From Blasia pusilla (lineage: Eukaryota): a stretch of 64,000 nt of DNA. A program made the position numbers and the translations under genes. The stretch lies in the NCBI GenBank assembly GCA_050084515.1, contig CM114271.1, forward strand, positions 5,270,001 through 5,334,000. The letters run 5' to 3'. The notes beneath the pieces were generated by a model, which saw only the letters and a list, made by a program, of their open reading frames with translations, had not been told where the DNA came from and searched no databases. Below, in pieces: positions 7,796-58,522 of this stretch (position 1 is the stretch's first letter; each line of letters begins with the position of its first letter).

Positions 7796-8432
7796 TGTCA
7801 CGACTTTTAGGATAGATCGGCGAGATCTAGTAGAGCGCCTTCAGACATACTTGAGGACAGCCTCATGAGGTCGAGGAAGACTTGTTGAGGCCACGGGTAA
7901 CTTGAGAGAGCAGGTTTTCCTTTCGTTTCGGCTCATTTGGAGTCATATAGAAAAATTGACTATTTCGGGTAAGTTTCTATTTGGAATATAGTTGACTTTC
8001 CACTTTGGAAAATGGCCTTGACCTGCTACAGCAGGTTAAGAGCCAAGGAGGTGATCTGCAAGTATAGGTTACCAAGGAGAGAGTTTGGAAGAGGAAAGAG
8101 GGTATACGTCCAAGAGAGAGAGCTTGAGAGCTCATTCTCTCTTTGTTAAATCTTTTGGCATGAGGCGGCAGAACTATGGTCCTCCTTGCCTTGTGTGTGT
8201 AACCCAAGCCTCTCATTAGGAGAGTGGGATTGGTTTGGCATGAGAAGAGTGCACACCATAGAGAGCTTGGTGTGAGATGTGATGTGAGATCTACTTGATT
8301 TAATGAAGATATTTTGGTATCTCTTGTCTCGTTGTGTATATTCTATGAGTTAACATAAGATCGTGCGTGTTGGTATTATGTATGTTCGGTGACAATAATG
8401 TATATTGTGTAGGGATGTGTATGCGTACGACA
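7796..8432 (+). mobile_element. Solo LTR related to the DNMT/PHD-Gypsy family
   Basis: TGTC...GACA termini with a 4-bp AGGG target duplication (7792-7795 and 8433-8436). Both ends align with the 3' LTR at 44591-44784. Confidence 0.85.
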
Positions 8433-21059: not shown

Positions 21060-23512
21060 ATGGCTACTTCAAATCCATATATGTCTCGAGTTGTGTGTGG
21101 TGTTGCTTTGGGGGAGAACACATATTGGAGATACTTGCATGATGGCACCAAGTGGATTTGCTTGGTTTGTAACCGCATATTCTCTACCAAAAACAAGACA
21201 AAGTGTAACCAACACTTGATTAAAAAGCATCCAAGCCTCGAACAATGCTACTTAGTTCCATTGGAACATGCGGGTAGGCCTCCTATTGACCCTAGAAAGG
21301 GCCGTAAGAGGCAGATTAGTGATTCCCAAAGAGAGAAAGAGAAGTTGAAGAAATCTGGTGATGCAACTAAGCGAGAGGAAAAAATGAGAAGGGAGAAATT
21401 ATATCGATTGCGCTAATTTCATTCAGAAAGATGGTTAGCAATTAAGGACCGTCCTAAGATCCCTCATTTGGGAAAGAAGCCACCCTTGTTAGCTTTGATG
21501 GAGTGTAATCTCCAACATTGCTTTGACATTGATAATTGGGACGAGCTCTTAAATAGCAAGAAGTATGGGCATTGTCTTGTGAAAGTTCGTGAGTGTCAAA
21601 CAAGAAATGGCATGATGGAGATGGTTGTGTTGGGATGCTTGGCTGTCATTGAGAAAGCAAGTGAGCCAATGTCTACAGATTTGATTGGGAGGGGCAAGCA
21701 ATACTTTCTGCACTTTCACTTGGTGAAAAACTATGGGGGGTGGTGGAGAAAAAAGGGGGTGTGCACTTGGATTTGCTTCCTTCTGAATATTCTAATGAGA
21801 GAGATCAGCAAGTGAGGGAGACAATTGCTTGGATAGCGAGGAAGAAGCAAAACTTGATGGGATGGATGGAGAGAGATCAAGAAAAATACTCAGATTTCAT
21901 GGCAAAGCAACAATATCAGGAATGGTTGGAGAGGAGGAATCTAGAGAAAGTGAAGGAGGTTTGTGAGGAAAGGGCATGTAGGTATGTGCCCAAAGAGAAG
22001 ATAGATGTAGACCTTCAATGGTCTAGGAAGAGTGGCAATCAATCGGGAGTTGGAGGTAGCTCCAATAACTCCTCTACCTCGTCCACTTCAACTTCAGATA
22101 ACTCTGAACACATTAGTGACTTTGAAGTTTTGCGCCCACAGAGGTCTTCTAGGGTGGTCCTTGATTGTGTTACACTGAGGAGTCCCATTGTGCTTGAGGA
22201 GGTGGGAGAGGACCATGATGTCCATACTGATGTTGAGGAGCCGAGACGAAGAGTGACGCGGACCAGATCCATGGGAGAAACCATTGCATCCGAGGAGACG
22301 TTACCCCGAGTCTTCAAAAGGCTCAAGAAGAGAGTAAGGCATGAGGTTAGTAGAAACTCCCCCAAAATGCCTACAAAGATCCCTACTTCATTGGAGGTAG
22401 ATGAAGATCATGTAGGAGACCCATCAGTGGCACCTACCGTTTGCGTCATGGAAGGCATTCCATCAACTATAAGCATAGATCCTCACATTGATGTGTGTGG
22501 GGTTACAATAGAGAGTGCTTATACCTCACCACAAAGGGAAAATCCAGATTTGAGTTCTTTCAATAATAGTTCATGTCATGGAGATAGAGATTTTGTTGGC
22601 GGAAGTCCTATCTCATACACACGGGTTATTCAAACTCCTGTCTCAACCATCTCCATACAAGGTGGTTTGGATCCCATTCATGTAGGAAATTTGGATGTTG
22701 GGACCATCCCTATGGCAGTGGAGGTTTCCTCTGAAGGTACACCATCTGAAGAACTCCCATGCATTCCACCCACTAATGAACCTGTTGGAGATGACTGTCA
22801 AAATTTGGAAGGCATTCCAACAAATGGATCCCCAATAGGCAGCTTGAAAGAGGATAGTGCAAAGCTCTTGGATCACTTGGGAGAGACAACTTATGTTGCT
22901 GAACTTGGTGACATAGATGTTGGTACATCTGAGTCTTTACATTTTGTGGATTCATTGTGTGAAATTGTGGATAGTGTAAACCATCACATCACAAAGATTC
23001 CTCTTGAGCATGGTTTTATTACACCAGTGAATACACATTCGGATTCTCTTAAGAATTCAAGTATAATAGGTGAGGATTGTGATCCTTATATTGATGGTGT
23101 GAGAGAGGGACCTTCTTCTCGTTACCTTCTTGCTTTGAAAAAGAACCTGTTGAAAGTTGCATCCCCATATGGAGTGAGGAAGAGAAATGTCTCAGTGCAC
23201 GAAGAAGTGGATGATTCTACAAGAGGGGGGCTTTCAACTCAAGTGGAGGATATAGATCCCATATCTGACACCCAGATATTAAGGGATGTAAATGAGGTTA
23301 ATGATGAATGGGCCATACCTCCATCCGTAACCCAAGTAGCGGATGCAGTAGAATACGAGAAGATGGAGGATGAGCTACCAAGTGCATCCCAACTCCATGT
23401 TACTCAGGTCATGGCCGAGACAAACACAAAACTTCTTGTGGATGAAAGTTTGAAAAGGTCTAAGAGCATCCAACGACATACTGGATTCTCTCCCCACCAT
23501 GGAGGAGTGTAG
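21060..23512 (+). pseudogene. Transposon-associated ORF with an N-terminal C2H2-like zinc finger and a long acidic/Ser-rich region (one stop, one frameshift)
   Basis: WICLVCNRIF..CNQHLIKKH. ORFs 21027-21416 and 21468-21815 are in the same frame; a frameshift at the G-run near 21735 leads into the 590-aa ORF. Confidence 0.55.
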
Positions 23513-33214: not shown

Positions 33215-36200
33215 ACAGACGTCTCCACCCGCATTCTCCAAGATTGGCATGATTTTCAATGATTCAGTGGCGTCCGGCTAGTTCATAACATTGGGAGGCA
33301 TTCTGGCATCGCTTTGCAAAAGAGAACTTGCGCCAATATGATCTAAAACGGTTGACGTACTCAAGTGGGGACTAGCATGAAGGGCAAGACAATGGCGTTC
33401 GCTCAGTTGGCGGTCAAGGGCGTTCTGGAAATGGAGTTCATTTATTTGATAAGCACGAAAAGCATTCTGGCATCCCTCCGCAAGAGAGAAATTGCAAAAT
33501 CACTCATAGATATTGATTCAGCCTCTACCATTGATCATCCTAAACTCCCACATGTTGAAATTTATATTATGTATATACGGTTGTCATATTTCTTGACAGA
33601 CGTCTCCACCCGGATTCTCCAAGATTGGCATGATGTTCAATGAATCAGTGGCGTCCAGCCAATTCATTATATCGGAAGGCATTCTGGACATCCTCAAAGG
33701 GGGGCCAACATGAACGTCCTCAAAGGGGGACTAGCATGAAGACCAAGACAATGGCGTTCGTTGAGTTGGCGGTCAAGAGCCTTTTGGAAATGGTGTTTGC
33801 TTATTTGATAAGAACGAAAAGCATTCTGGCATCGCTCCGCAACAGAGAAATTGCGAAATCACGCGTAGGTATTGATTCAACCTCTACCATTGATCATCCT
33901 CAACTCCTACATATTGAAATGTATATTCTATACATACGATTGTCATATTTCTTGAAAGACGTCTCCATCCGAATTCTCCAAGATTGGCATGATGTTCAAT
34001 GAATCAGTGGCGTCCGGCCAGTTCATTACATCGGAAGGCATTCTGCCATCGCTCCGCAAACAAGAAATCGCGTCAATACGATCTACAACGGTGGATATCC
34101 TCAAGGGGGGACCAGCATGAAGAGCAAGACAATGGCGTTCGCTCAGTTGGCCGTCAAGCACGTTCTGGCAATGGCATTCGCTTATTTGATAATAACGAAA
34201 AGCATTTTGGCATCACTCCACAAGAGAGAAATGGTGAAATCACGCGTAGGTATTGATTCAGCCTCTACCATTGATCATCCTAAACTCCTACATATTGAAA
34301 TGTATATTCTATACATATGGTTATCATATTTCTTGAAAGACGTCTCCACCCGCATTCTCTAAGATTGGCATGATGTTCAATGAATCAGTGGCGTCCGGCC
34401 AATTCATTATATCAGAAGGCATTCTAGACATTCTCAAAGGGGGACCAGCATGAACGTCCTCAAAGGGAGACCAACACGAAGAGCAAGACAATGGTGTTTG
34501 CTCAGTTGGCGGTCAAGCGCGTTCTGGCAATGGCGTTCGCTTATTTTGATACGAACGAAAAGCATTATGGCATCCCTTCGCAAGAGAGAAATGGTGAAAT
34601 CCCGCGTAGGTATTGATTCAGCCTCTACCATTGATCATCCTAAACTCCTACATATTGAAATGTATATTCTATACATACGATTGTCATATTTCTTGAAAGA
34701 CGTCTCCACCCGCATTCTCCAAGATTGGCATGATGTTCAATGAATTAGTGGCGTCCGGCTAGTTCATTACATCGGAAGGCATTATGTTATCGCTCCGCAA
34801 ACGAGAATCGCGCCAATACGATCTACAACGGTGGACATCCTCAAGGGGGGACCAGCATGAAGAGCAAGACAATGGCGTTCGCTCAAATGGCGGTCAAGCG
34901 CGTTCTGGCAATGGCGTTCGTTTATTTGATAAGAACGAAAAGCATTCTGGCATCGCTCAGTAACAGAGAAATTGCGAAATCACGCATAAGTATTGTTTCA
35001 GCCTCTACCATTGATCATCCTCAACTCCTACATATTGAAATGTATATTCTATACATACGGTTGTCATATTTCTTGAGAGACGTCTTCACCCGGATTCTCC
35101 AAGATTGCCATGATGTTCAATGAATCAATGGCGTCCGGCCAGTTCATTACATCAGAAGGCATTCTGCCATCGCTCCGCAAACGAGAAATCGCGCCAATAC
35201 AATCTACAATGGTGGACATCCTCAAGGGGGGACCAGCATGAAGAGCAAAACAATGGGGTCGCAATAAGACCACAAAGGCAAGCATATACATTTGCCACAA
35301 ATAGTGAAGTCACAAAATGCTTTGGAGGACACATTGATGATATAGATAGCTCTTGATTCAGAATCTATAGTTGAGGCCCCTACCATTGAATCATCGTTCA
35401 TCTTAAACTCCTACATATTGAAATTTATATTCTAGATATATACCTTCCATATTTCTTCACAGATATCTCTACCCGGATTCTCAAAAATTAGCATGCTATT
35501 CAATGAATCAACGGCGTTTGCTCAGTTGATAAGATCGAAAAGTATTTTGGCATCGCTCCACAACAGAGAAATTGGGAAATCATGCATAGGCATTAATTCA
35601 GCCTCTACCATTGATCATACTCAACTCCTACATATTGGAATGTATATTCTATATATACAGTTGTCATATTTCTTGAAAGACGTCTCCACCCGGATTCTCG
35701 AAGATTGGCATGATGTTCAATGAATCAGTGGCGTCCGGCCAGTTAATTACATCGGAAGGCATTTCGCATCGCTCATAACGAAAAATTGCCGCCAATACGA
35801 TCTACAATGGTGGACGTCCTCAAGGGGGAACCAACATGAAGAGCAAGACAATGGGGTCGCAATAAGTCCATAAAAGCAAGCATATACATTTGCCACAAAT
35901 AGTGAAGTCACGAAATGCTTTGGAGGACAGATTGATGATACAGATAGCTCTTGATTCAGGATCTATCGTTGAGGCCTCTACCATTGAATCATCAATCATC
36001 TTAAACTCCTACATATTGAAATATTTATTCTAGATAAATAACTTTCACATTTCTTGACATACATCTCTACCCGGATTCTCAAAGATTACCATGTTGTTCA
36101 ATGAATCAATGGCGTTCGCTCAGTTGATTAGATCGAAAAGCATTTTGGCATCGCTCCGCAAGAGAGAAATTGCGCCTGCACAAATACGTTCCACAATAGT

Positions 36201-36235
36201 GGATGGCCTCAAGGGGTAAGCAGCATGAAGAGCAA
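33215..36235. repeat. Satellite array with ~360/381-bp monomers and higher-order structure
   Basis: GTCTCCACCC(G/C)GATTCTC anchor at 33221, 33602, 33961, 34342, 34702, 35082, 35465, 35682 and 36063. Confidence 0.95.
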
Positions 36236-39200
36236 TTCCGTCCTTAGTAATGATTGTGGACAGACTTGCTGCTACAACGTCAGCCCTGCACTTGGGTAAC
36301 AACCGATCTCACCAAGTCTTGCCTCGTTTGCCCCACATTGATGCGCTAGACATTCTTGCATGTGTCTATATTTGCAACATACATTATAGTCCATCATGCT
36401 TGTGGCTCACCTTGAAAATTTGCACTTCCCAGACACCTGAGCAACAGTGATGCCTACTCAAGTACTGTGTCATGTTTGGCTCTGTTTCTTTTCAGTACTA
36501 GTTGATCGCATCAGGTCTATTTTGCAAAGAGGTGAGTTAAGGCTATGGAATTTTTTCCTGACCACCAGCTTGTATTTCTTGTGATGTTCGATCAAGACCA
36601 ATCACTTTATCGAGCTTTTCCCACATGACCAGTAGTAGTTTGGACGAGGCTATTCTTATGCTGTGACTACTGTTATTTGTGGAAAAACCTATGCTCGTGC
36701 TGTTATTGACGGTGGGTACAGAGTAGGTCTATCCAAGGATTCAGTGCTGTAACAATGCAATCTTTGTCTAGTTGTGCAGAGGCATGCGTCGTAGCTATGG
36801 TGTTGGCGGTTCACCCGTAAGCCCTGTCATGTTTTGATTCGACAACTTGCACTAGAATAGGGTACCGATGCACATCAAAAGCTGTGGTCGCGATTATGTA
36901 CATGGGGATTTGAGCAACTGCCCGCATACAGGTCAGCAGAACTCGGGAGCCCACGAATAGTTTTGATGTTAGTAGAAAGCCATGTAGGTAAGCTGTTGGG
37001 AGTTGCAATGCAGACCGTTCATGTATTAGCAAGAATGGAATAGGTTTCTACATTGGGAGGGATCTTCGGTCAAGCACAAATCCCCTGTTTGATAATTCAT
37101 GGATTTGAATATGGAGCATATTAGTTCAGATCTTCTCCACTCTAGCTTGACTATCCAGTAGAATAGCCGCTTTATGCGTAACTTAACTTTAGCTCATGAT
37201 GTTACAGTTATGGTAAAGACTTGTCTCATCAGCAAACTTTGAGGAGTGTGCACTTCGTGTGTAAGTTATTGGGGGTTGCAATGCAGACCGTTCTTGTATT
37301 AGCAAGGACATAACAAGTTTCTATATTGGGAGGGGTCTTTGCTCAAGCACTGAGGCGCCTGTTTGACAACTTCATGGGTTTGAATCTGTAAAACATTAGT
37401 CAGCTATTGTTTCTAGATAATAGAGTGATGTGAAGCGTAGGTTTTTGGGTGCTGTAGGCACTATAGAGCTACATGACTTAATTGCAGAGTTTAGGAGTTG
37501 GTGTGACTCATAGCGGGCTAGGAACTCGAGAGAGTTCAACCCGTTTACAATATGGAACGGTATGTTCCAGCATTTAGAGGGGGCGCCCATGGACGATTGC
37601 CATGAGTTCTCCCACAAATATGCCCAAGAGATTGAGGCATGGCGACTCTACTATGACCCACACTATGTGTCATGGACGGAGCCGTTCCCAGATGAGGAGG
37701 AGGAGTCGGGAGAGGCTACTTCCTCTTCCACTAGTGATGTTTTAGAAGGGGTCAATCGCACTGGAGCAGTTGCACCATCTAGTCGGGTTCGTCCCACGTT
37801 CAACCCCGTGGTTGAGTTCTTTGCTGAGTTGAGGGCGAGCTACCAAGGGGTACGGACGGAGAAGTTGTAGAGCATCCACAACTTCCAAAGGCGCCAAGGT
37901 GAGAGTTTGCGTGAGGCTTACACTCGCTTGCGCCGATTGATCAACGCCACTCAGGGACTGATGGAGGCTCAGGATATCCAATCATGGTACACGATGCTAA
38001 ACCGGACCCTACGGATACGGGTGAGGGAGGGATGCTTCTTATGAATACCTCCCCTATGTTGAGAGATGTTTTTAGGATGACCGAGAAAAATGAGCGCAAC
38101 ATGACGGAGGAGAGCGTAGCCACCATGGGTTCTGGGCGAGAGCAGTCACGATTGTCTGCACTACCAGTGTAGCAACGTGGACTCCGAGATAGGTCGACTG
38201 TGGCACCACGAGCTCAAGGAGGATATTGAGAGGCACTGCCACAGATACCTACGCCTTCATATGCGGCTCAGTAGCAGCCGCCTATGATTACTTGTTGGTC
38301 ATGTGGTGGAGCTCATCATCAGCGTGATTGCACTCGTGAGGGTCATGGACGCGTGCCTCAGTATGGGGGAGGAGATGGTGCTGCATTAGGAGGTTATCAG
38401 TGTGACTATTATCATAGGTATGGTCACACACGCGCCAAGTGTTTCAGTTTACACCATGAGTTACGTCCGGACTGAGGGCCAGAGAGGGCACCAGAGCGAG
38501 TAGCCGGTCTGGGTGGGCTATAGATCGTGCACCTGGTGGTCCCATTGGAGGAAGAGGAGTTGGAGTTACCCGACAGGATGGTGGAGCTGCCCGTGGAGGA
38601 GGTAGATTCCCACCACCTGGACGCGTAAAGGGAGATGCCAAGCGTGAGGCTGGGATGGGATGGCCGCTTTGATACAATAGCTACAAGAGCAGATTGCCGT
38701 TATGGCATTGAGGCTATCCAATGCCGGATCCGTGGCATCGACATCATATGGATCAGCCAGAGATATGGAGGATCCTGGTTGGATATGTGGGATTGCCCAG
38801 ATGGAGGCCGCCGTAGTTGTGGCACGTGGAGCAGCCGTAGAGTTGGATCCACAGCGAGGGGAAGCCAGGAAATAGACCAGGCTTCCTCAGTCTTTCACGT
38901 TGTCCAAGGTGATGAGGATTCCATCGTTGGGTCATGATTAGAGTTCCTAGAGAGTTGGTGATGTTATTGGTGTGCAAGCATAGAGGGTAATGGGAGAAAC
39001 GAGTGTGACAACTCCTATTGTTGATGCTCAGTAGGAGCATGTATCGAGTACGATGTTGGGGGCGGCCATAATGGTCTACCGTGCTCCGCTATTTTCTACT
39101 TCCGATGTTTTGACATTGGGAGGTACTCCTGCCAAGGTATTCCACCTAGCCATTACGCAATGTGAGTGTGGAGTTGGAGTTCTTGCATCATATTCAAAGG

Positions 39201-40128
39201 TGATTGCAGAGGAGGTGATGGACCTGCCTTTGAGCTGATGCTCGGGCCGTCCACGCTAGATTCATGGCAGGCTCCAATTGCTCAGATGGTGGAGATGCCC
39301 GCGATAGAGCGTGCCATGGCTTCTCCTGATGTTGTGTTGCTGGATAATTGGGGAGAGGTCTTCCAGTTGGTGAGTCCTAGAGGTCAAGATTTTAGTCCGC
39401 AACGCGTCTTGTTGGATTCATGAGCGCAACCCTTGATGTTGGGGAAAGCGTCATTCAGAGGATTGGGCTTCACAAGAGCCGATGTGGAGCGTTTTCCATT
39501 CCGGATACAGACATCCTTGGGTGGAGCAAGTACCACACATTATATCACCCGACAAGAGGTCGTGGTGAGGATTCGCCCGGGACATCCTATAGATGAGTCT
39601 GTGGTGGGAGCCAAGGCGATAGTGACTGATGCAGAGTCCTACGACGTCTTGGTTGGTGGAGCAGTGTTATACATGATGGGTTTTTCCCTAGATTATTGGG
39701 AGGAGTCACCATCCTACAGACCAGGATGGCAGTAAGGTGATGGGCGCCTTAGCTCATTACCCGTTCGATTTACAAGTGTAATGATCGAGCGACGGCCACG
39801 AGAGATGGCGACCTTAGCAGCATTTAGCAATGCCATCACTTGGCCTAGCGATTTGATTGAGGGACATGTCCATGCAAAGAATACTCCCGTTCTTGACATT
39901 TCTATGGAGAGGAGTGTCATGTTAGCCGCATCAATCCGTGGAGGAGAGATATCGTTTTGGGGCTCGACTGAGGAGCTTCGACGCTTAGCCACTGAGCATA
40001 TGCATATTGCGTGGAGCGAGATGTTTGCACCAGAGTGTGACGGGTCAGAAGAACCCCAAGTAGGCAAGAATGCTGCTATGACCCCTTTGGACATCATCCC
40101 GATTATGTGGTGCATCCCAGAGGAGGGT

Positions 40129-41070
40129 ATTTGGGTCTTGGATCTCTTTGGATGGATCAACATTGGGTTAGCTGCTGTTTTGCAGGCTGGAGTACGCGTG
40201 CAACAGTATTTGTATGTGGAGATTGATGATGTTGCTAGGCGCGATTCACTTCACCATATGGCGCAATTAGGCCTCTATTTTCCCGACTTGTTATCTGCAT
40301 TCGTCATTCACGGTTACCAGAGTTTCCTACTGAGGGACATTTCATTGTTGGGGGCGCAGGACTTGGAGCGGGTAGGGACCATAGACTTGGTCATTTCTGG
40401 TTGGGCGTGTCAGGGCCAATCGAGTGTTGGAGGAGGTAGCGGGTTAGCTGACGCTCGGTCCTCGTTGTTTTGGGAGATGATGCGGATCTTGCGACATTTA
40501 CAAGAGCATCAGCTTCGTTCTCTAGCATACATTTTGGAGAATATGCCAATTTTGGACGATTTGAGGTCCCGCATGGTGACGAGAACACATCACGTGCATG
40601 CATGGATTGGCTTGGCAGTGTTGTTAGATGCGGCAAGTGTGGGTTCTAGAGCACACCGACCGCGTCTTTGGTGGACCAACTTGGTACCGCATGAGGTGTT
40701 GCGGAGATCTTATGTGAGAGTGGAGTGTCCCTCCAATTTGTTGGTGGATTCTATATTGGATCAGAGCCGTCGATAACAGGCAATGAGGCACGATGATGGA
40801 CCGTCGTTGACTCTCATCATTAGGATTGGCATGCCACGAGCAACCTTTCCCACATTGGTGAGTTTTCTCGCTTCCTATGCATTCAAGGAGAATGGAATTG
40901 GCTTGGTTTGGGATGACCATATAAAGAGGTTGGTGGAGCCCAACGCCAATGAGCGAGAGAGAGCGATGGAATTCCCCACAAGAGTGATGGCAGTATCATA
41001 ACTATTTGATGCATCACAACATCATGTCTTGGGTCAGGCGATGGACCTGAACTGCTTGGCATGGATTTTC
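40129..41070 (+). pseudogene. DNMT3-like C5 cytosine DNA methyltransferase domain inside the Gypsy polyprotein
   Basis: Motifs in canonical order: I VLDLFGWI, II YVEID, IV IDLVISGWACQG (catalytic Cys), V GLADARSSLFWE, VI YILENM, VIII AHRPRLWWTNL, IX ERERAMEFP, X LGQAMD. Same frame as the protease, with point stops only. Confidence 0.88.
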
Positions 41071-44000
41071 AGCTTAGGAGTATCTGAGCAATATCGTTTG
41101 AGGATGCGACATATCACAAAAGTTGCGTTGGTGAGCCCTTGCCTACCAAGACGGTTGAGGCAATGGCTGGGGGCAAGACCCGAGGAGATCGATACACTAG
41201 GGGTGATCGGAAGAGACACCCTTGGACTTCTTGGGATATTTTGTACGTACGCCAGGAGATGGTAGCCACAACATCGAGCGTGGTTCCGGGTACAGCAAAT
41301 GGGGATCCGATTTTGCATTTGGTTGTAGGAGAGCAGTCGAGTTTTGTTTTCCGAGACGGGGTTGCACCATAGCAACCACCCATACCCATGCCGGAGAGTC
41401 CTATTGTAGTCACGATGGAGACTTGGGAGTCATATATGGGCCCTAAGTTGACAGGAGGAGAGCGGCGCCGGATCACGAGTTCCTTAGAAGTTATAGGAGC
41501 TGTTTTGCATTTAGTATGCAGGATTTGGGTACGTTGAAGGGTCCAGGGATCCGCATTGAGATGTCGAGTGACACGCCGATCTTCCGACGATCCTACAAGT
41601 ACAGTGACATAGAGAGGGCTCTAATTCAGAAGCCAGGACTTGGTTGGCACATGATTAGTGGTATGTCGCATGGAGAGTATGCATCTGCGACTATCATGCC
41701 CACCAAGAAGCATGTGCATGGCAACCGGACGGATATGCATATGTGTGGAGATTACCGACCTTTCAATCGGCAGACAAAGTCCGATAGGTATGCCATGCCC
41801 ACTCCTGAGGAGATCTTTGATTCTATTGGGTATGTAAAGGTCTTCAGTTTGTTAGATCTTTGAGTTGGATACCATCAGCTGTCTATCAGATTGGAGGACA
41901 AGGAGAAGACGGCATTTTGGGGCATCAATTCTCACGGGAAGAATTGCTTGTATCAGTGGCGGTTCTTTCCAATTGGGTTAAAGAACGCCTCGGCTGAGTT
42001 TTAGAGGGTCATGGATAGATCTTGGAAGGTCTAGGTGTTATATTGATGACATTGTAGTCTTTAGTGCCACGGTTGAGGAGCATGACCGACATCTAGAGGA
42101 GATATTTCGATGATTGCAATTACATGGGCTGAAACTATATCGAGGCAAGTGCAAGTTCTTCTACAACCAGATTGAGTACCTAGGTCATACGATATACCCA
42201 AGGGGCCTTGGTGTGCGGTAGACGAAGATAGAGGCTATTTCACGCATTCCACACCCTACAGATGTGAGTCAAGATCGTGTATTCAGGGGATTGGTGAACT
42301 TCTATCGACGGTACGTCAAGGGTTTTAGCTCGATTGCAAAGCCCCTGATCTTGCTGACCAAGGTGGATCAAGAGTGGCACTGGGGGGATGAGTAGAAGGG
42401 GCATTGGGGGGATGAGCACGAGAGAGCATTTAAGATGCTCAAGGACAGAGTGATGTTCGTGCCCATATTGAGGAGAGTGATCAGGGGGCGTCCTTTCCAG
42501 TTGCATACCGATTGGAGCATATTAAGGCTTGGAGCCGTGCTCACCCAACATGATGATGATGGTAGAGAGTTTGTAGTGGCTTATGGTAGTTGCTTGAATA
42601 ATATTGCAGAGGAAAAGTATAGCTCGTATGAGGGTGAGTGATTGGCTGTAGTGTGGGTTTTCACACTTTTCAGATGTTATCTATTCGGCAATCCCTCTAC
42701 CATTATTACTGATCATCAGCCACTTAAGTGGTTGATGGAGTCTGACAAGTTTACAGGGAAGCTTGCGAGATGGGCTCTTTTGTTGCAGGAGTATGACTTC
42801 TAGGTGGAGCATGGACATGGGATGCTAAACCACGATGCATATGGTTTGAGCCGTAACCTATGCCCGAGTCAGCGAGATGCGACTGGAGCTTGTTGGCATG
42901 GTGAGAGTGATGAGGAGTTGGTGCCATGATGGCTTGCGTCAGCCTATTTGGGCTTGTTGGCTATGGAGAGCCAGATTGTTGAGACTTCGATGGCGAGGTG
43001 TGATGGAGAGTCCTTAGATCTAGAGGCTGGTGAGGAGATGATTGGTGGCCGAGATATTCACAACAATGGAGTGGTCTTGGAGTACCTGCGTACTGGCAGC
43101 GTTGCAAGCATAGTGGGTGCTAGAGAGCAGGATCGGATCCTACATCGAGCCAGACGGTCTCGGTGGGAGGGCAAACATGTGTTGCAAGTGTGGGAGGATG
43201 GTAGAGTGCGTGTAGTGCCTCATCCTTGGTAGAGAGCATATTTGGTGCGTCATGCCCATGAGGAGTTGGGTCATTTTGGAGTGAATCGGACGTACAACTT
43301 ACTCCAAATTTAATATTTGTGGCGAGGCATGCAGAGTGATGTTCGGTAGTTTGTTGTCAGATGCATGGTGTGTGATTGAGTGTGAGCATCGTTCAATGCT
43401 CTGACTCCATAGTTGCATCCACTTCCAATCATGGGTTTAGGTTATAGATGGAGTTTGGATTTTGCAAGACCTTTCCCTTTGACGGAGTGCCATAGTCGTT
43501 ATGTGTTGGTGATGGTCGAGCACTTCTCAAAGTGGATAGAGTTGGTTGCATTGTCTAACAAAGTGAGTGAAGGAGTAGCATATGCCTTCCTAGATGGAGT
43601 GTTGAGTCATTAAGATGCACCAGCTGAGGTGTTGACAGACCATGGTATAGAGTTCCGCGGGGAGTTTCAGGCCTTGTGTGATCAGGCACTGATCAACCAT
43701 CGCACTACCTCGCGAGATCATCCTGAGGCGGATGGACTAGCCGAGCGGGTTATGCAGACGTGAAGAGAGGACTACGCAAATATGGCTTGTGGAGAGGTCA
43801 CCCAAGAGATTGGGACATTCAGTTGTTGTGGTTGGCGATGGGATACAGATTTAGGAAGCAGGCATCCTTAGCGTCTTTCTCACCGTATTTGTTGCTTTAT
43901 GGCCGAGAGCCAAATTTACCTACGACCATTTGTCGAGATGTTGGTGAGGTGTTGAACCTTGATAACCCTGATGTATGGATGCGAGCATCCTCTCAGAGGG

Positions 44001-44353
44001 CTGAGTTGTTTCGGAGAGTGATGCTCATGGCGTTTGAGAACTTGGCGATTGCGCAACATCGAGATACGTTGAGGTATGCAACTATTCGGGGAGGTGGTTA
44101 TCGACCTACAATCCGGAGGTTTCATCAAGGAGACTATGTCTACTTATAGCAGATGGCACCCACGACGTTGGATATGACTGCATGGTGCACCATCTTGAGA
44201 GTGCGTGAGGTTTTGCCATCCGGTGTTCTCTTATTGGAGGGATGCGATGGTATGGTTTGGAAGGACCATGTGCGTAACTATGCTCCATGTCATCTTCCGA
44301 ACATTGACAATACAGTTGATTAGAGTTTAGCAATAGTTCTTACAGGCTTACGA

Positions 44354-44494
44354 TGTATGTTGTGTGGTTCCGCCCGTGGTGCAGCCATAATGCTAGTGTG
44401 TGATGGGTGTTCGAGAGGATGGCATATTGCATGTTTGACGCCACCTCTCACTAGGATTTCTTAGGGACGATGGATGTGTCCCAAATGTACGTAG
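44354..44494 (+). pseudogene. PHD finger (C4HC3) at the integrase C-terminus
   Basis: CMLCGSARGAAIMLVCDGCSRGWHIACLTPPLTRIS*GRWMCPKCT*, in frame with integrase ORF 43760-44149. Confidence 0.9.
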
Positions 44495-46863
44495 CGTAGG
44501 TAGTTCTACATTATGACTTGAGGCTAGTACATGGATGATAAGAAGGCGACTAACGATAGGGCCACATGTTCTTAGTGTTTGAGAGATGTATGTCATGGTA
44601 GGTAGGGATAGATGGCTATCTAGAGTTAGAGGGACCTAACCCCCAACTAGGGGGGCGATTGGAGAGATTTTGGTACTTTTGTCTCGTTGTTTGGATGCCA
44701 TGAGTTAGCATGGGATCGTGCATGTTTGTGTGTGTGTCTGGTGACAACAATATATGTTATGTAACGATGTGTATGCGCACGACATATACGCGACTATATG
44801 TAGTTCTTTGCCCACCTATAGGTCGTTGTGCTGAACACAAAGGCATTATCCTTCTCAACAATTCCCGAGGAATGAAAGTCCGTGAAACACCAACATGTTC
44901 ATTTGACTGATTTGTGGTGCAGCTACCCTATTTGGAACTAGGTAGGAACTATCTTGTTGTACTCCCCACTAACTGTTCAGTAAAATACAAATGTCAGCCT
45001 CTCAGTTTCATGGTCGCGGTTTCTTTGGTCACATCTTAACCACTCTAGGCTAACTATCCATCAGAATGGCTGCACATTCATACGCAACTTAACTTTACCT
45101 CATTATTTTACAACTATGATAAGGCCTGTCTAATCAGAAAACTTTGAGAAGCCTACAGTCCGCGTGTTCATATGTACTAAAGCTTCATTATAAATCTCCT
45201 GCCACGAACCAAGCGCATACTATACTTTCCTGCACATTGTTAGACTGCCATTGTGTATTGCATCTGCATGTAGGTTTTTCATACATAGTGACTGGTTCAC
45301 ATAATATCAAATCGGCAGGTTGAGCCTACAACAGAGATTCTATAGTCAGCTATACACTAAACATCTTTGTAAGTATGGGGCTAGACTATATTAACTATTC
45401 TATATCACACTCGGTATTGTTGCTAGGAAATCACTCTACGAGTTTCATGATGCAGACCATACACTTGTATTTACAGTTGGGTGTCATGCCACTGAAGTAA
45501 GGTGCCCACCACCAACATATCTCTCTCCATTGGCATTTTGTATCATTGTGAATCAGCTGTGTCGTGAGCTTCATGGTGTGATGCCCATTCGAGTTACAAT
45601 GCAAAGCAGAGTTTGTTTAGCCGGTATAGAGGGGACTACTATCAATGCGGCAAGCTATGTGCATCGTTGTAGCTTGTCATATTTAGGACACTGAATCAAC
45701 CCACTGTCTGAGGTGGAAATTTGTGCACTACAATCCACTCATATCAGAGGAGAGAAGGTTAATTTAATACCTGATGTTGTAGGTGAGCAACCTTATGTAC
45801 TGTTCACTCAATTGTCTCCATCCGAATATGTATATTGCATAATCTGTGTTTACAGACTCGGCCAACCTATGCTAGATGAACTGAAAGTTTCCCTATGTAC
45901 TTCAGCCTATGGATTTTCTGAGACCAACGGTGTATTACTATGGCTTCTTAAGTTTCTTGCAACACCATCCTTTCAGGTTGCTGTTAAAGACTTCTATTGC
46001 ATATAGCGACGAGCTCCTTCACCTTGTTCACTTATCCTGACCTATTGGATAACAATTCTTGTATTAAGATCCAGACACGGTTGTAGTGTCCGTGGTAGTA
46101 GGCGATTGTCAATTGGTTATGCAAGTTCATTTATTGTGTATGCATCAACTCCTCTAGTTTCTACTGATTATTTGTAGTTGAACACGACATATCCCGATAT
46201 ACTCTCCCAAGTTTAGGTACTTACCTGCCTCCACCAATGTCATGTATTTATGGGATGCGTGCGATTGTATTAATGGCCACTACTTGCCAGTGACTTTAGC
46301 AAACAACTGTAGATCCTTTGCTATTTTAATTGATTATGCTTAGTTCTAGGTAGGTGTTTAACGTGGATTTTTCACAAGCCTTATTGCATTCTAAATTACA
46401 TTTGTAGATTAGCTTCTTCATAGTTATCCATCCAATTCCATGATGAATAGTTGATCCAGGGGCTCGATTACATATATTCAGGTGAACTGTACATCGGCAT
46501 TGTTCACACAACAAACATTGCTCATGTCCATGCATCAACCTCCTAAACTGTTGTGTTTTGCGGCCTACTTCTCTGTCTTGGGTTTTTTTGTATCTAGGGA
46601 AGGAGTATAGACATCATTAGATACAAAATGGCCGCCTTGTTTGCCTTTGTTTAGAATGCTTACCTATGTTACTGCCACCTCATGCATGGACACAGTGCAT
46701 ATATAGTGTTCTTGCTTTCTATACGTGCCAAGAAGTGGCATTTCCATCTATTGTTATGAAGTAAATTTGTGTACATTTTGATTACTTGCTTCCGTTATAC
46801 TGATGTGACTTCCTATTGTGGAACCTTATTGAACCAAGCGCATGAGAGTGCTTCTTGTAATAC

Positions 46864-55714: not shown

Positions 55715-56900
55715 TTTGAAGGATGCTGCCCTACATTTGGTGATGATCTTTGGAGTCGGCCGAAGACTTCTGCACTACAATTGCCGAAGATCTTCAAAGT
55801 TGGGTGAGGGATACTGTTCCACATTTCGTGAGGATGTATCCAATTAGGTGAGGGATGCTGTCCTACATTTGCTGAGGATGTGTAGGAGTGGGCTAAGCAC
55901 ACTGTCCTATATTTCATGAGGATCTGTGAAATTGGGTGAGGGATACTCTCCTACATTCATGAGGATCTGTGGAATTCGGTGAAGGATACCGTCGTGCATT
56001 TGCTAAAGATGTGTTGAATTAGGTGAGGGATATTTTCCTACATTAATGAGGATCTGTGGAAGAAGGTAAGGGATACCGCCCTACATTCGCTGACGAGGTG
56101 TGGAATTGGGCGAGGGTTACTGCTGTATGTTTGCTGAAGATGCGCGGGATTGGGTGAGGGATGCTGTTCTAGATTTCGTGACAATCTGTGAAAGTGGACG
56201 AGGGATGTTGCCACATTGCGGGATCATCTTTGAAATTGGGTGAAGCGTGCTGTACTGCATTTGCTGATGATGCTTGGAGTTTGGTGAAGAATGCCGCAAT
56301 ACATTTGCTGATGATCTTCAGATTTGGGTGAGGTGCAGAATGCTGCCCAAGTTGTTCTGAGCATCTCTGGGCTTCCGCGAGGAATACTGTTGTACATTTG
56401 CTGAATATGTGTGGAATTAGGTGAGGGGTAATGTCCTACATTTTGTGGGGATCTGTAGAACTAGTTGAGGGATAATGCCCTAGATTTCGTGAGATTCTGT
56501 AGAATTGGTTGAGGGATAGTCCCATACCTTTGCATGAGGATGTGAGTAATTGGGCAGGCTCCCTTCAAAGGATGCAGGTTTAGGGTTTACTTTTTTTGTG
56601 ATGATGTTTGGAATGGGGAGAGGCCTGCAGTCCTGTAATTAGTGAGGATCTTTGGAATTGGGTGAAGAATGCTGTCCTATATTTTATGAGGATCTGTGAA
56701 ATTGGATGAAGCATGCTGCCCTGCATTTGCTGATGATGTTTGGAATTGGATGAAGAATGCTGCCCTCCGCTGCTTGAGGATATGTGAAGCTGTGAGAACA
56801 CCAGCAAAGGTATGGTGCCGTCCTTTTGGAGAAGATCTTTGGAACTTTGTGAAGGATCCAAACCCACATTTGCTGAGGATCTGTGTCCAGAATTTGGTGA
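55715..56900. repeat. Degenerate 44-bp minisatellite (about 25 units) upstream of the F-box/kelch CDS
   Basis: Consensus approx. GGGATGCTGTCCTACATTTGCTGAGGATCTGTGGAATTGGGTGA; anchors at 55722, 55810 and 55854 give a 44-bp period. Confidence 0.9.
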
Positions 56901-57169
56901 GCTTCATTCGATGTAAAGGTGAAGCTGTGGGACAAAAAAGAACGAAAAAAGAAGCCGATGATTTTATATGGTCAGAAAGAAAAGAAGCCTTTTGAAAACG
57001 ATCAGGTCAGTAGAAGGAGGAAGGGGGGGAGGGGGATCAAATTAAGTGGCTTTCATTTGGAGTTGGATGGGCTTCATTCAAAGGGAGGGTGACATTTGAA
57101 CAGGTGAGGATCTAGGACGCAAGGAAAGCTGATGAATTGATATCAGCAGTTCAGTGGAAGGAGGACCAA

Positions 57170-58522
57170 ATGAAGTGGCACTCGTTTGGAGATGGTATGA
57201 GATCGAAGCTCATGAAAATGATCTCCGACATGATAAGTGAGGTGGCGAGCACGAGCAGCAGCAGCAACAGTGCAAGCAGCAGACGAACGCATTTTGAACA
57301 GGGGAGAGGAGGGGAAGATCAGAGCCTCATTCCAGGAATCTCTAACGAGTTAACCATCGATAGAATCCTCACGAAGGTGCCCTGGAAGACTCTCTATGTG
57401 CTCCAGTCCGTCAGCATTGCATGGCGGTCAGCGATTTACCATGGGAAGGTCTACGATGCTCGAGTTCGAACCAACTCCTCTCAAACTCTCGTGGCTCTGA
57501 TCCATAGAGCCCCAGTTCCCAAATCTGCAGAACCGTCTCTCGACAATCTCTACATCAGAACTATGGATCATGACACCAGAACTGCTGCTGTTCCCTGGTG
57601 GTCCCAGTTTGCCATTTCTCTCTTCGACCCCCTGGACAATTCTTGGCAGCAGCTGCCAGCACTACCTCATGTTCGAAGTGGAATTCCCATCAGATGTGGG
57701 TGTGTTTTTCTTCAGGGGAAGTTGTACATATTGGGAGGTGATGAGGACAACAACAACAACAGCAGCAGCAGCAACAACAGGACGAGAAATGAGGTGTTCA
57801 TGTTCGACTTGGTGGCTGGTCCAGGAGAGTGGCAAGCTTGTGCAAGCATGCTGAGCAGGAGGTCAGACTTTCCATGCGGAGTGGTTGATGGTAAAATCCA
57901 TGTTTCAGGTGGATCTGGAGGTCTGGAAGCAGAAGTGTACAATCCAGAGGAAGATTTGTGGCGACCCATTGCAGATCTGTTGCACCAACGGACAAATCAC
58001 ACAATGGTGAGCTTGGATGGGCAGCTGTATGTAGTTGGGGGAGCTGTGAGGTTCGAAACTCAAGACGATGACGGCAGTGTGGACATCTATGTGGATGCAG
58101 AGTGTGCAGAGTTGTATGATCCCTTGAAGAATCAGTGGACGGAAGTGGCAAAGGTGTTGGATGGGGTGGGAGATCACACCATGGTCGTTGTGAATGGAAA
58201 GCTTTACGACTTTCGTCACGAAGCTGTCGATGTCACAGCTTATGATGTTGCTTCGAACTCTTGGTCAATCTCGCAGCACATCTCGTGGGAAGCTCTGGAA
58301 TCCATGGGAGCTTCAAATGGAGCATGCTGTGCCATCACCGCCACCGCCGTTGATGGGGAGCTCTATGCTCTTGTGAGATGGCAATCTAATTTCTACGAGA
58401 AGCTGTCCATTCTAAGGAGTAAGTGTTTTGGTGACCATAGAGTTCCTCTATCTTGGGAAGGGCTTTTGTGCCCCTTCAAGATTGATTTGAACTGGCCCTT
58501 TCTTTGTGCTATTGCACTTTGA
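57170..58522 (+). CDS. F-box/kelch-repeat protein, intronless CDS (start ATG uncertain)
   Basis: F-box LIPGISNELTIDRILTKVPW..VSIAWR; kelch repeats GKLYILGG, GKIHVSGG..EVYNPEEDLW, GQLYVVGG..ELYDPLKNQW. Confidence 0.92.
   Translation: MKWHSFGDGMRSKLMKMISDMISEVASTSSSSNSASSRRTHFEQGRGGEDQSLIPGISNELTIDRILTKVPWKTLYVLQSVSIAWRSAIYHGKVYDARVRTNSSQTLVALIHRAPVPKSAEPSLDNLYIRTMDHDTRTAAVPWWSQFAISLFDPLDNSWQQLPALPHVRSGIPIRCGCVFLQGKLYILGGDEDNNNNSSSSNNRTRNEVFMFDLVAGPGEWQACASMLSRRSDFPCGVVDGKIHVSGGSGGLEAEVYNPEEDLWRPIADLLHQRTNHTMVSLDGQLYVVGGAVRFETQDDDGSVDIYVDAECAELYDPLKNQWTEVAKVLDGVGDHTMVVVNGKLYDFRHEAVDVTAYDVASNSWSISQHISWEALESMGASNGACCAITATAVDGELYALVRWQSNFYEKLSILRSKCFGDHRVPLSWEGLLCPFKIDLNWPFLCAIAL

Follow-up and report, generated by a model that had tools for sequence, protein, structure and literature searches.

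Can a single retroelement carry both an enzyme that writes DNA methylation and a domain that reads histones, and if so, do the two domains work together? The question is raised by a stretch of 64,000 nucleotides (nt) from Blasia pusilla (assembly GCA_050084515.1, contig CM114271.1, positions 5,270,001 to 5,334,000), hereafter the window, whose first letter is position 1 of all coordinates given below. A first-pass annotation had assigned 37425-44784 to one retroelement with a DNMT, i.e. a C5 cytosine methyltransferase, and a PHD finger fused to the integrase. We are close to certain that this plus-strand segment is a dead, 5'-truncated copy of a Ty3/Gypsy-type element from the lineage named "streptophytes (Gypsy-DNMT3)" in the available part of 10.64898/2026.05.21.726589, with a polyprotein that unites a DNMT3-like domain and a PHD finger inherited together. 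The order of domains in this single copy is gag (with a CCHC knuckle), protease, DNMT, reverse transcriptase (RT), RNase H, integrase and PHD; the protease-RT-RNase H-integrase succession and the CCHC gag by which Ty3/Gypsy elements are recognized are thus both found. A three-frame Pfam scan of the element reported, in order, DNA_methylase (PF00145), RVT_1, RT_RNaseH/RT_RNaseH_2, Integrase_H2C2, rve and PHD (PF00628), among which RT_RNaseH, RT_RNaseH_2 and Integrase_H2C2 are Gypsy-type models. Domain borders were delineated by combining Pfam, homology alignments and family-specific profiles built for this analysis; the latter detected no second copy of the family anywhere in the 64-kb window.

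The methyltransferase domain (39868-41166, plus strand) obtains 614 bits with the family profile, and its open 346-aa frame (39736-40776) matches PF00145 with an E-value of 4.4e-7 and 30.1 bits (cut-off 22). The motifs follow one another in the canonical order on the same strand: I (40138-40167), IV (40399-40416), VI (40537-40548), VIII (40651-40680), IX (40951-40974) and X (41029-41046). Among proteins of solved structure, the best relatives of the DNMT profile are DNMT3A, 3B and 3C (E-values from 4e-17 to 1e-12), followed by plant DRM (3e-9 to 2e-6), with DNMT2 and the bacterial enzymes far behind. By sequence, the methyltransferase of the element is DNMT3-like with a non-rearranged order of motifs. 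Its closest solved relatives are the animal DNMT3 enzymes (DNMT3A/3B/3L group), but the profile gives DNMT3A only 65 bits as against 180-290 bits among the retroelement DNMTs. In the relatives of the element the DNMT is encoded in one open reading frame (ORF) with RT. A look-up in the ESM Atlas with the DNMT part of a relative returned generic C5-methylase clusters only.

Together with the stop that closes the polyprotein frame, the C4HC3 PHD finger occupies 44354-44494 (plus strand; 61 bits with the local profile), the finger proper being located at 44354-44488 (PF00628: E-value 6.8e-11, 42.5 bits, cut-off 24). It reads CMLCG...CDGC...WHIAC...GRWMCPKC, so that none of the eight zinc ligands is missing and the conserved Trp is retained; the stop of the frame lies one codon beyond the last Cys. 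The earlier description of a full C4HC3 finger with the conserved Trp at the end of the integrase frame thus holds for its motif and its position; "full" does not, because an in-frame stop interrupts the finger at 44462-44464. The finger continues the frame of the integrase C-terminal region (43727-44353, plus strand, recognized by homology to P0055 and containing two in-frame stops), with which it is collinear. The C-terminal region and the PHD together are 74% identical to Marchantia Mp_7g09570 (P0055), and 43760-44491 is 66% identical to P0058. Neither the three-frame Pfam scan of the element nor the intact relatives yielded a chromodomain match, and the proposal that the finger sits where chromoviruses have their chromodomain agrees with this arrangement. 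As in chromoviruses, a chromatin reader is fused to the C-terminus of the integrase, here a PHD instead of a chromodomain; the role ascribed to the chromodomain, in the part of the literature available to us, is to tether integration to marked chromatin.

Since the copy is degenerate and its frame changes at least five times, the window alone could not rule out a chimera in which DNMT and PHD come from two nested elements, or in which one of them is a captured fragment of a host gene private to this copy. Comparison with relatives makes this extremely improbable. Four proteins predicted on metagenome contigs, P0175 (2811 aa), P0177 (2391 aa), P0069 (1516 aa) and P0116 (1425 aa), contain DNMT, RT, RNase H, integrase and PHD in this same succession, each within an ORF free of interruptions. 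When metagenome contigs were scanned with the DNMT alignment, 80 loci emerged, 29 of which have at least 4450 nt after the start of the DNMT, and in 22 of these 29 independent loci a PHD follows on the same strand, 3.7-6.0 kb downstream of the DNMT; the domain maps of the remaining seven (L004, L005, L037, L045, L051, L056 and L061) look truncated, interrupted or degenerate. In a search of 1.84 billion representative proteins, the DNMT profile gave 5869 matches with E-values of at most 0.001 and 394 with E-values of at most 1e-30, and the best 150 matches are all retroelement DNMTs. Forty-nine of these best 150 combine the DNMT with a full integrase that is followed by 265 residues or more; a PHD is present in 47 of the 49, the exceptions being P0232 and P0325. 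Nesting or capture is also opposed by the read depth, which is continuous over the whole unit with sharp common ends, and by the trees of the DNMT and the integrase-PHD part, which agree on their main split (see below). DNMT and PHD thus belong to one retroelement, as had been proposed, and the suggested survey of relatives for joint occurrence came out positive. What has to be abandoned is the notion that the pairing is unusual: it is the norm within the lineage, and a Gypsy element with a DNMT3 domain was published in 2018 (PMC5890265). Nor is the union of a writer and a reader in one retroelement peculiar to this family, as EpiLTRs also combine methyltransferases with a chromatin reader, according to the available part of 10.64898/2026.05.21.726589.

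Two architectures can be distinguished among the relatives. In type A, to which the window element and its closest relatives belong, the DNMT lies between protease and RT; named members come from Marchantia polymorpha, M. paleacea, Calypogeia fissa, Sphagnum troendelagicum and Closterium. In type B, with 128 proteins as against 10 of type A, it lies between RNase H and integrase, and named members come from Hariotina, Scenedesmus, Haematococcus and Pleodorina. The sequences assembled here thus show streptophytes with the DNMT before RT and chlorophytes with the DNMT between RNase H and integrase. DNMTs of type B score 247-289 bits against the profile of type A, compared with only 65 bits for solved DNMT3A, which indicates that the two types are close kin. 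We calculated a DNMT tree of 61 rows: the window copy, the 12 available rows of type A, 39 of the 109 rows of type B and 9 gag-protease-DNMT proteins from bryophytes. Its streptophyte rows fall on one side of a branch with an SH-aLRT value of 94 (below the star threshold), and the window copy falls within a bryophyte clade with a support of 100. In the tree of the integrase-to-PHD part (60 rows), a clade with a support of 100 is composed of all type A proteins, 17 short RT-to-PHD proteins and the window copy, while the volvocine relatives (P0083 from Pleodorina, P0117 from Tetrabaena) fall in the chlorophyte group. Both trees were made with a quick method, are unrooted and contain no host DNMT3 or DRM rows, and so are compatible with one or two captures of the DNMT. 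Two proteins, P0110 and P0132, have room for a DNMT but possess none; their position nested among type B rows suggests that the domain was secondarily lost in this subclade. Taken together, the comparisons show, at the level of sequence, both accessory domains inherited with the backbone of the element across green plants and algae. The two groups also differ at the C-terminus: chlorophyte-type polyproteins (P0191, P0091, P0120 and other type B members) extend 200-350 residues past the PHD, with a weak Tudor-like match in P0191 (PF21743, E-value 3.6e-4, below the cut-off), and bryophyte-type proteins end 1-13 residues past the finger.

The DNMTs of the chlorophyte type are largely invisible to Pfam. 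In four type B proteins from chlorophyte relatives (P0083, P0088, P0122 and P0106), PF00145 gives 14.5 bits, 12.7 bits or nothing, with a cut-off of 22, whereas our family-specific profile places a DNMT between RNase H and integrase in each of them. Among the proteins of our integrase-PHD query set, 46 span RNase H and integrase, and 22 of them have a DNMT in between; the other 24 comprise two with a DNMT before RT, 20 too short upstream to tell and two without a DNMT. According to precomputed Pfam annotation, PF00145 is present in only 10 of the 120 proteins listed. Pfam-based surveys will thus undercount DNMTs carried by transposons, and inventories of PHD-bearing Gypsy elements are probably incomplete as well.

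Both accessory domains are under constraint, because their key residues are kept across sequences that each stand for a cluster at 50% or 90% identity (130 full-length DNMT domains and 178 full-length PHD fingers). The catalytic Cys is retained in 129/130 DNMTs, as is the Glu of motif VI, the Asn of the same motif in 127/130, and motif IX in nearly all, and each of the eight zinc-ligand positions of the finger is conserved in 177 or 178 of the 178 sequences. These numbers bear on the idea that DNMT and PHD are neutral passengers with no function in the life cycle of the element. The loss of the DNMT in one subclade and the low read depth of the DNMT core in the host would fit such a notion, but we regard it as very improbable given that catalytic and zinc-binding residues are maintained in nearly all representatives and that Ka/Ks values below 0.2 were published for the DNMT domains of Klebsormidium nitens elements (PMC5890265).

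The copy in the window is dead: every one of its domains is broken, and it is incapable of targeting or methylation by itself. It is collinear with two proteins, the Marchantia gag-protease-DNMT protein P0040 (residues 12-1216 on 37436-41136) and the RT-RNase H-integrase-PHD protein P0058 (residues 32-1028 on 41471-44491), in alignments that fall into seven pieces with six frame changes. The aligned parts hold 33 in-frame stops, 12 of them at positions where the relatives have Gln or Arg. All features of the copy are on the plus strand. The gag-like region (37436-38463), delimited by tblastn with residues 12-354 of P0040, to which it is 36-50% identical, carries the CCHC knuckle CWSCGGAHHQRDC at 38293-38331 and is damaged by five in-frame stops and one frame shift. 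In the aspartic protease region (38660-39735, collinear with residues 398-~740 of P0040), the active-site motif LLDS*AQ (39409-39429) is split by a stop, at a place where the intact relative P0006 has LLDSGAQPLMLGK. The DNMT domain contains two in-frame stops beyond 40776; its motif I reads FGW, with Gly at the last position in 128/130 relatives, and its motif IV reads ACQ, as opposed to P/E-C-Q in relatives. RT (41471-42191, 59% identical to P0058) is split over two frames, in both of which PF00078 detects it; the local profile places it at 41732-42191, with YIDD at 42039-42050. RNase H (42405-42794; PF17917 E-value 3.6e-29, PF17919 E-value 3e-22) and the zinc-binding (H2C2) and DDE core parts of the integrase (43218-43724; PF17921 E-value 2.8e-12, PF00665 E-value 1.4e-9) were both also recognized by family profiles. 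Besides the stop within the PHD finger, the stretch that leads from the integrase core to the finger contains two others. The observed/expected CpG ratio of the copy is 0.68, and that of its flanks 0.47-0.58. In a nearly intact relative, locus L001 (6810 nt), two stops divide a single frame into open stretches of 957, 438 and 766 aa; its CpG ratio is 0.28, far below that of the window copy.

To delimit the copy and assess the family in its host, we placed reads carrying the same species label, from a whole-genome run and from three RNA runs, on the window at 90% likeness. The DNA depth (both orientations summed) amounts to 70-1100 in the bins that span 37420-45099 and to ~0.1-2 in the flanks, a mean ratio of roughly 500 between element and flanks. 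The 3' end can be set at 44784, because reads that continue beyond it run into mixed sequence (agreement 0.56) and because a fragment elsewhere in the window ends on the same bases. The span first proposed, 37425-44784, is therefore borne out by the step in read depth, by the divergence of the reads and by the end of that fragment; it comprises the coding region and a 3' untranslated tail of ~290 nt (44495-44784). The fragment in question, at 8304-8432, is a small 3'-terminal piece with 78% identity to 44660-44784. The last ~105-125 nt of the element, which recur there, are about twice as deep as their surroundings (2157 as compared with ~1160 around 44680). Another small fragment, at 1-73, is an integrase C-terminal piece of a further family copy, 86% identical to 43932-44004. 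At its other end the copy starts at the gag frame, without a 5' terminal region, and looks 5'-truncated. Comparison of the two ends of 37425-44784 yielded no direct repeats, and a sensitive search for short ones returned only chance matches of 8-11 nt. As candidates for remnants of terminal repeats we considered the pairs 36988-37125/37261-37400 (81% alike) and 37126-37262/45029-45167 (76%), and rejected them, since the depth there is ~0-0.5 as against hundreds inside the element. They are better read as part of a low-copy tandem repeat with a period of ~273 nt (36988-37400, in a Y-X-Y arrangement) upstream of the element, with one X unit downstream at 45029-45167 (76% alike). The element seems to have inserted into this tandem repeat, which is not its pair of long terminal repeats (LTRs) in view of the near-zero depth.

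The family to which this fossil belongs is high-copy and transcribed in the sense direction in the host species. Nearly all placed DNA reads (28036/29803) are 90-95% alike to the window copy, and several of its frame breaks are not shared by reads from other copies. All three RNA runs contributed reads. Their first mate lies on the minus strand, which in most stranded libraries corresponds to sense transcripts, and their depth reaches 45-90 over the integrase-PHD part. Just one of the 4395 placed RNA reads is at least 99% alike to the window copy, which argues that other copies are transcribed and this one is not. Over the DNMT core, the lower depth mentioned above may mean either that this copy is more diverged from the family there or that many copies differ there; no strongly supported deletion joint in the reads accounts for it.

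What might active members of the family do with the two domains? We propose, tentatively and with somewhat less than even confidence, that the C-terminal PHD tethers the integrase to nucleosomes through the N-terminal tail of H3, most likely unmethylated at K4, so that insertions would land away from active promoters, as with the chromodomain in chromoviruses, and that the DNMT3-like domain, produced next to RT within the particle, would methylate the new cDNA or the insertion site. Taking identity and mechanism together, we assign a probability of roughly 0.6 to this as the best explanation of the locus. The suggested H3 preference comes from the solved PHDs nearest to the finger. The 60 nearest listed include CHD4, KMT2C/D, WSTF, KDM5A/B/D, Lid, ATXR5, DPF2/3, KAT6A/B, PHF21A, BAZ2A/B, PHF12, UHRF1/2, CHD5, AIRE and a few others, the match in KDM5A/B being their PHD1. 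Most of these proteins recognize an H3 N-terminus in which K4 or R2 is unmethylated, and the 60 do not include ING, BPTF or TAF3, which read H3K4me3 through an aromatic cage. The PHD of the element thus resembles readers of the unmodified H3 tail. Chlorophyte fingers have an acidic stretch before the MLLCD motif, which is mostly absent from bryophyte fingers.

The same similarities admit another division of labor. In animal DNMT3 proteins a reader of H3K4me0, the ADD domain, works with a de novo methyltransferase, and by analogy the PHD could serve the methyltransferase of the element, reading H3K4me0 to direct or license the DNMT as ADD does, with the choice of integration site a side effect or absent. 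The DNMT3-like character of the enzyme, the kinship of the finger with readers of the unmodified H3 tail and the presence of both domains in 47/49 proteins all speak for this possibility, as does the chlorophyte architecture, where the DNMT lies directly upstream of integrase and PHD and a DNMT-integrase-PHD product is conceivable. In the streptophyte architecture, however, the window element included, RT and RNase H separate the two domains, and the DNMT-less subclade (P0110, P0132) retains its PHD, which implies a role for the finger without the DNMT. Compared with animal DNMT3, moreover, reader and writer of the element are at opposite ends of the polyprotein, and the reader is a plain PHD, not an ADD. 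We therefore consider it unlikely that the finger serves primarily the methyltransferase.

Slightly less probable, in our opinion, is that the DNMT does not silence the element, but methylates the cDNA as camouflage or protection (host mimicry, resistance to deamination, mimicry of gene-body CG methylation) or acts on RNA, with the PHD as an unrelated targeting module. Options of this kind were raised in the Discussion of PMC5890265; they agree with the conservation of the catalytic residues, and the fact that the family is still transcribed and high-copy in its host argues against efficient self-silencing. On the other hand, the copies of the K. nitens element described in that article, KnitGypsy-Dnmt3, bear CHG/CHH methylation typical of silent transposons (PMC5890265).

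Several observations count against the tethering-and-methylation proposal or against parts of the framework in which we place it. The functions of both domains are predicted from sequence, and the putative preference for H3 is read from profile similarity together with the specificities of related fingers. The subclade formed by P0110 and P0132 lies among DNMT bearers, so the DNMT is dispensable, and the bryophyte subclade lacks most of the acidic loop residues of the chlorophyte fingers. In type A the interposed RT and RNase H make a physical coupling of DNMT and PHD not evident. Within the host, the DNMT core (40108-40875) has 4-10 times lower DNA and RNA depth than the neighboring parts, and CpG depletion in the window copy is not stronger than in its flanks. 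Expression of the KnitGypsy-Dnmt3 methyltransferase in yeast led to no methylation, a result that the authors, in the available part of their article, call inconclusive (PMC5890265). Finally, the membership of Klebsormidium in the lineage is based on an integrase, P0164, whose closest relatives carry the PHD.

KnitGypsy-Dnmt3 is the closest published system: an intronless DNMT3-type domain within the Gypsy Pol ORF of Klebsormidium nitens (de Mendoza et al. 2018, PMC5890265). The window element shares with it the Gypsy RT and integrase and a non-rearranged DNMT3-like domain inside the Pol polyprotein; it differs in its host, which is bryophyte-like and not Klebsormidium. For KnitGypsy-Dnmt3, DIRS-like repeats are indicated in the legend of Fig. 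4c and purifying selection on the DNMT domains is reported (PMC5890265). Our relatives L036 and L019 have terminal repeats in an X1-internal-Y1-X2-Y2 layout (split direct repeats) that resembles this DIRS-like arrangement, unlike the window copy, which is devoid of repeats. The published study treats the acquisition of the DNMT as specific to the K. nitens lineage, whereas in our searches the lineage turned up in liverworts, in a moss and in Closterium, and chlorophytes have it with the second architecture. The word PHD does not occur in the main text of that article, although its figure or supplements may show one. The published family very probably also has a PHD, because the closest relatives of the K. 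nitens integrase model P0164, namely P0072 (77% identity) and P0082 (71%), carry one; P0164 itself groups with the clade of the window element, is 43-52% identical to type A members and ends at the first Cys pair of the finger.

More distant systems combine some of the same ingredients. EpiLTRs, as described in the available part of 10.64898/2026.05.21.726589, are LTR retroelements with a Dam-like adenine methyltransferase, a DNMT4-related DNMT and a chromodomain; like them, the window element joins DNA methylation and chromatin reading in a single LTR retroelement, but with a DNMT3-like DNMT and a PHD, and with no match to a Dam-type methyltransferase in its Pfam scan or in the intact relatives scanned. 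SymbioDIRS-Dnmt3 of dinoflagellates likewise has a DNMT3-type domain inside a retroelement Pol and, in the portion of PMC5890265 available to us, was shown to perform de novo CG methylation; it differs in being a DIRS element with a tyrosine recombinase and no PHD, and its authors regard it as an independent capture. That PHD-bearing Gypsy elements are known on their own, as the first-pass annotation stated, is exemplified by Gypsy-7a_cRei, an active Chlamydomonas element with a PHD finger in its Gypsy Gag-Pol, whose intergenic insertions exceed the chance expectation 2.6-fold (10.1101/2022.06.16.496473, in its available part). In contrast to the window family, no DNMT is reported for Gypsy-7a_cRei in that part of the source; such a domain may have gone unseen, given that Pfam misses chlorophyte-type DNMTs (4/4). 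Many fusions of PHD and chromodomains with transposon domains are mentioned in the accessible portion of the work of Grau-Bove et al. In the REXdb survey of plant LTR elements, neither PHD nor methyltransferase occurs, and our literature search, covering text as opposed to figures and supplements, retrieved no description of DNMT and PHD together in a Gypsy element.

Could the pairing be ancient and the basis of a common strategy? One may speculate that a DNMT3-like writer and an H3-tail PHD reader constitute an old, co-inherited module of a Viridiplantae-wide Gypsy clade, carried by many green-algal PHD-Gypsy elements and analogous to the coupling of ADD and DNMT3, which would find H3K4-unmethylated chromatin and methylate the element there, as a self-contained safe-harbor and latency system. 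This broader scenario seems to us doubtful, less probable than the tethering mechanism and a little more probable than a PHD that serves the methyltransferase.

Other features of the window can be noted briefly. Just upstream of the element, at 33355-36189, lies a satellite array with at least six copies of units of ~359-381 nt, 72-90% identical; over its stretch 35500-36267 the whole-genome depth is ~21-31, compared with ~1 in unique flanks. A further tandem array, at 55789-56551, consists of ~17 copies of 44-nt units (66% matches) with higher-order periods of 87 and 131 nt. A 468-aa open frame at 57116-58522 on the plus strand contains Kelch repeats (PF01344, E-value 1.5e-19) and is probably a host gene or an exon of one. 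The longest open frame of the window (615 aa, 21665-23512, plus strand) has no match to a Pfam family with an E-value of at most 0.001.

The copy in the window is itself an ordinary fossil; what deserves attention is the wider pattern of two architectures, near-universal pairing and chlorophyte DNMTs that escape Pfam. In this family, a DNA methyltransferase and a histone reader have stayed together within a retrotransposon for a very long time, and in two different domain orders. Marchantia, with its many copies and public chromatin maps, would allow a direct look at the idea of targeting. If the two domains do cooperate, the element would carry its own means to choose and to mark chromatin, which bears on the co-evolution of transposons and silencing in plants and algae.

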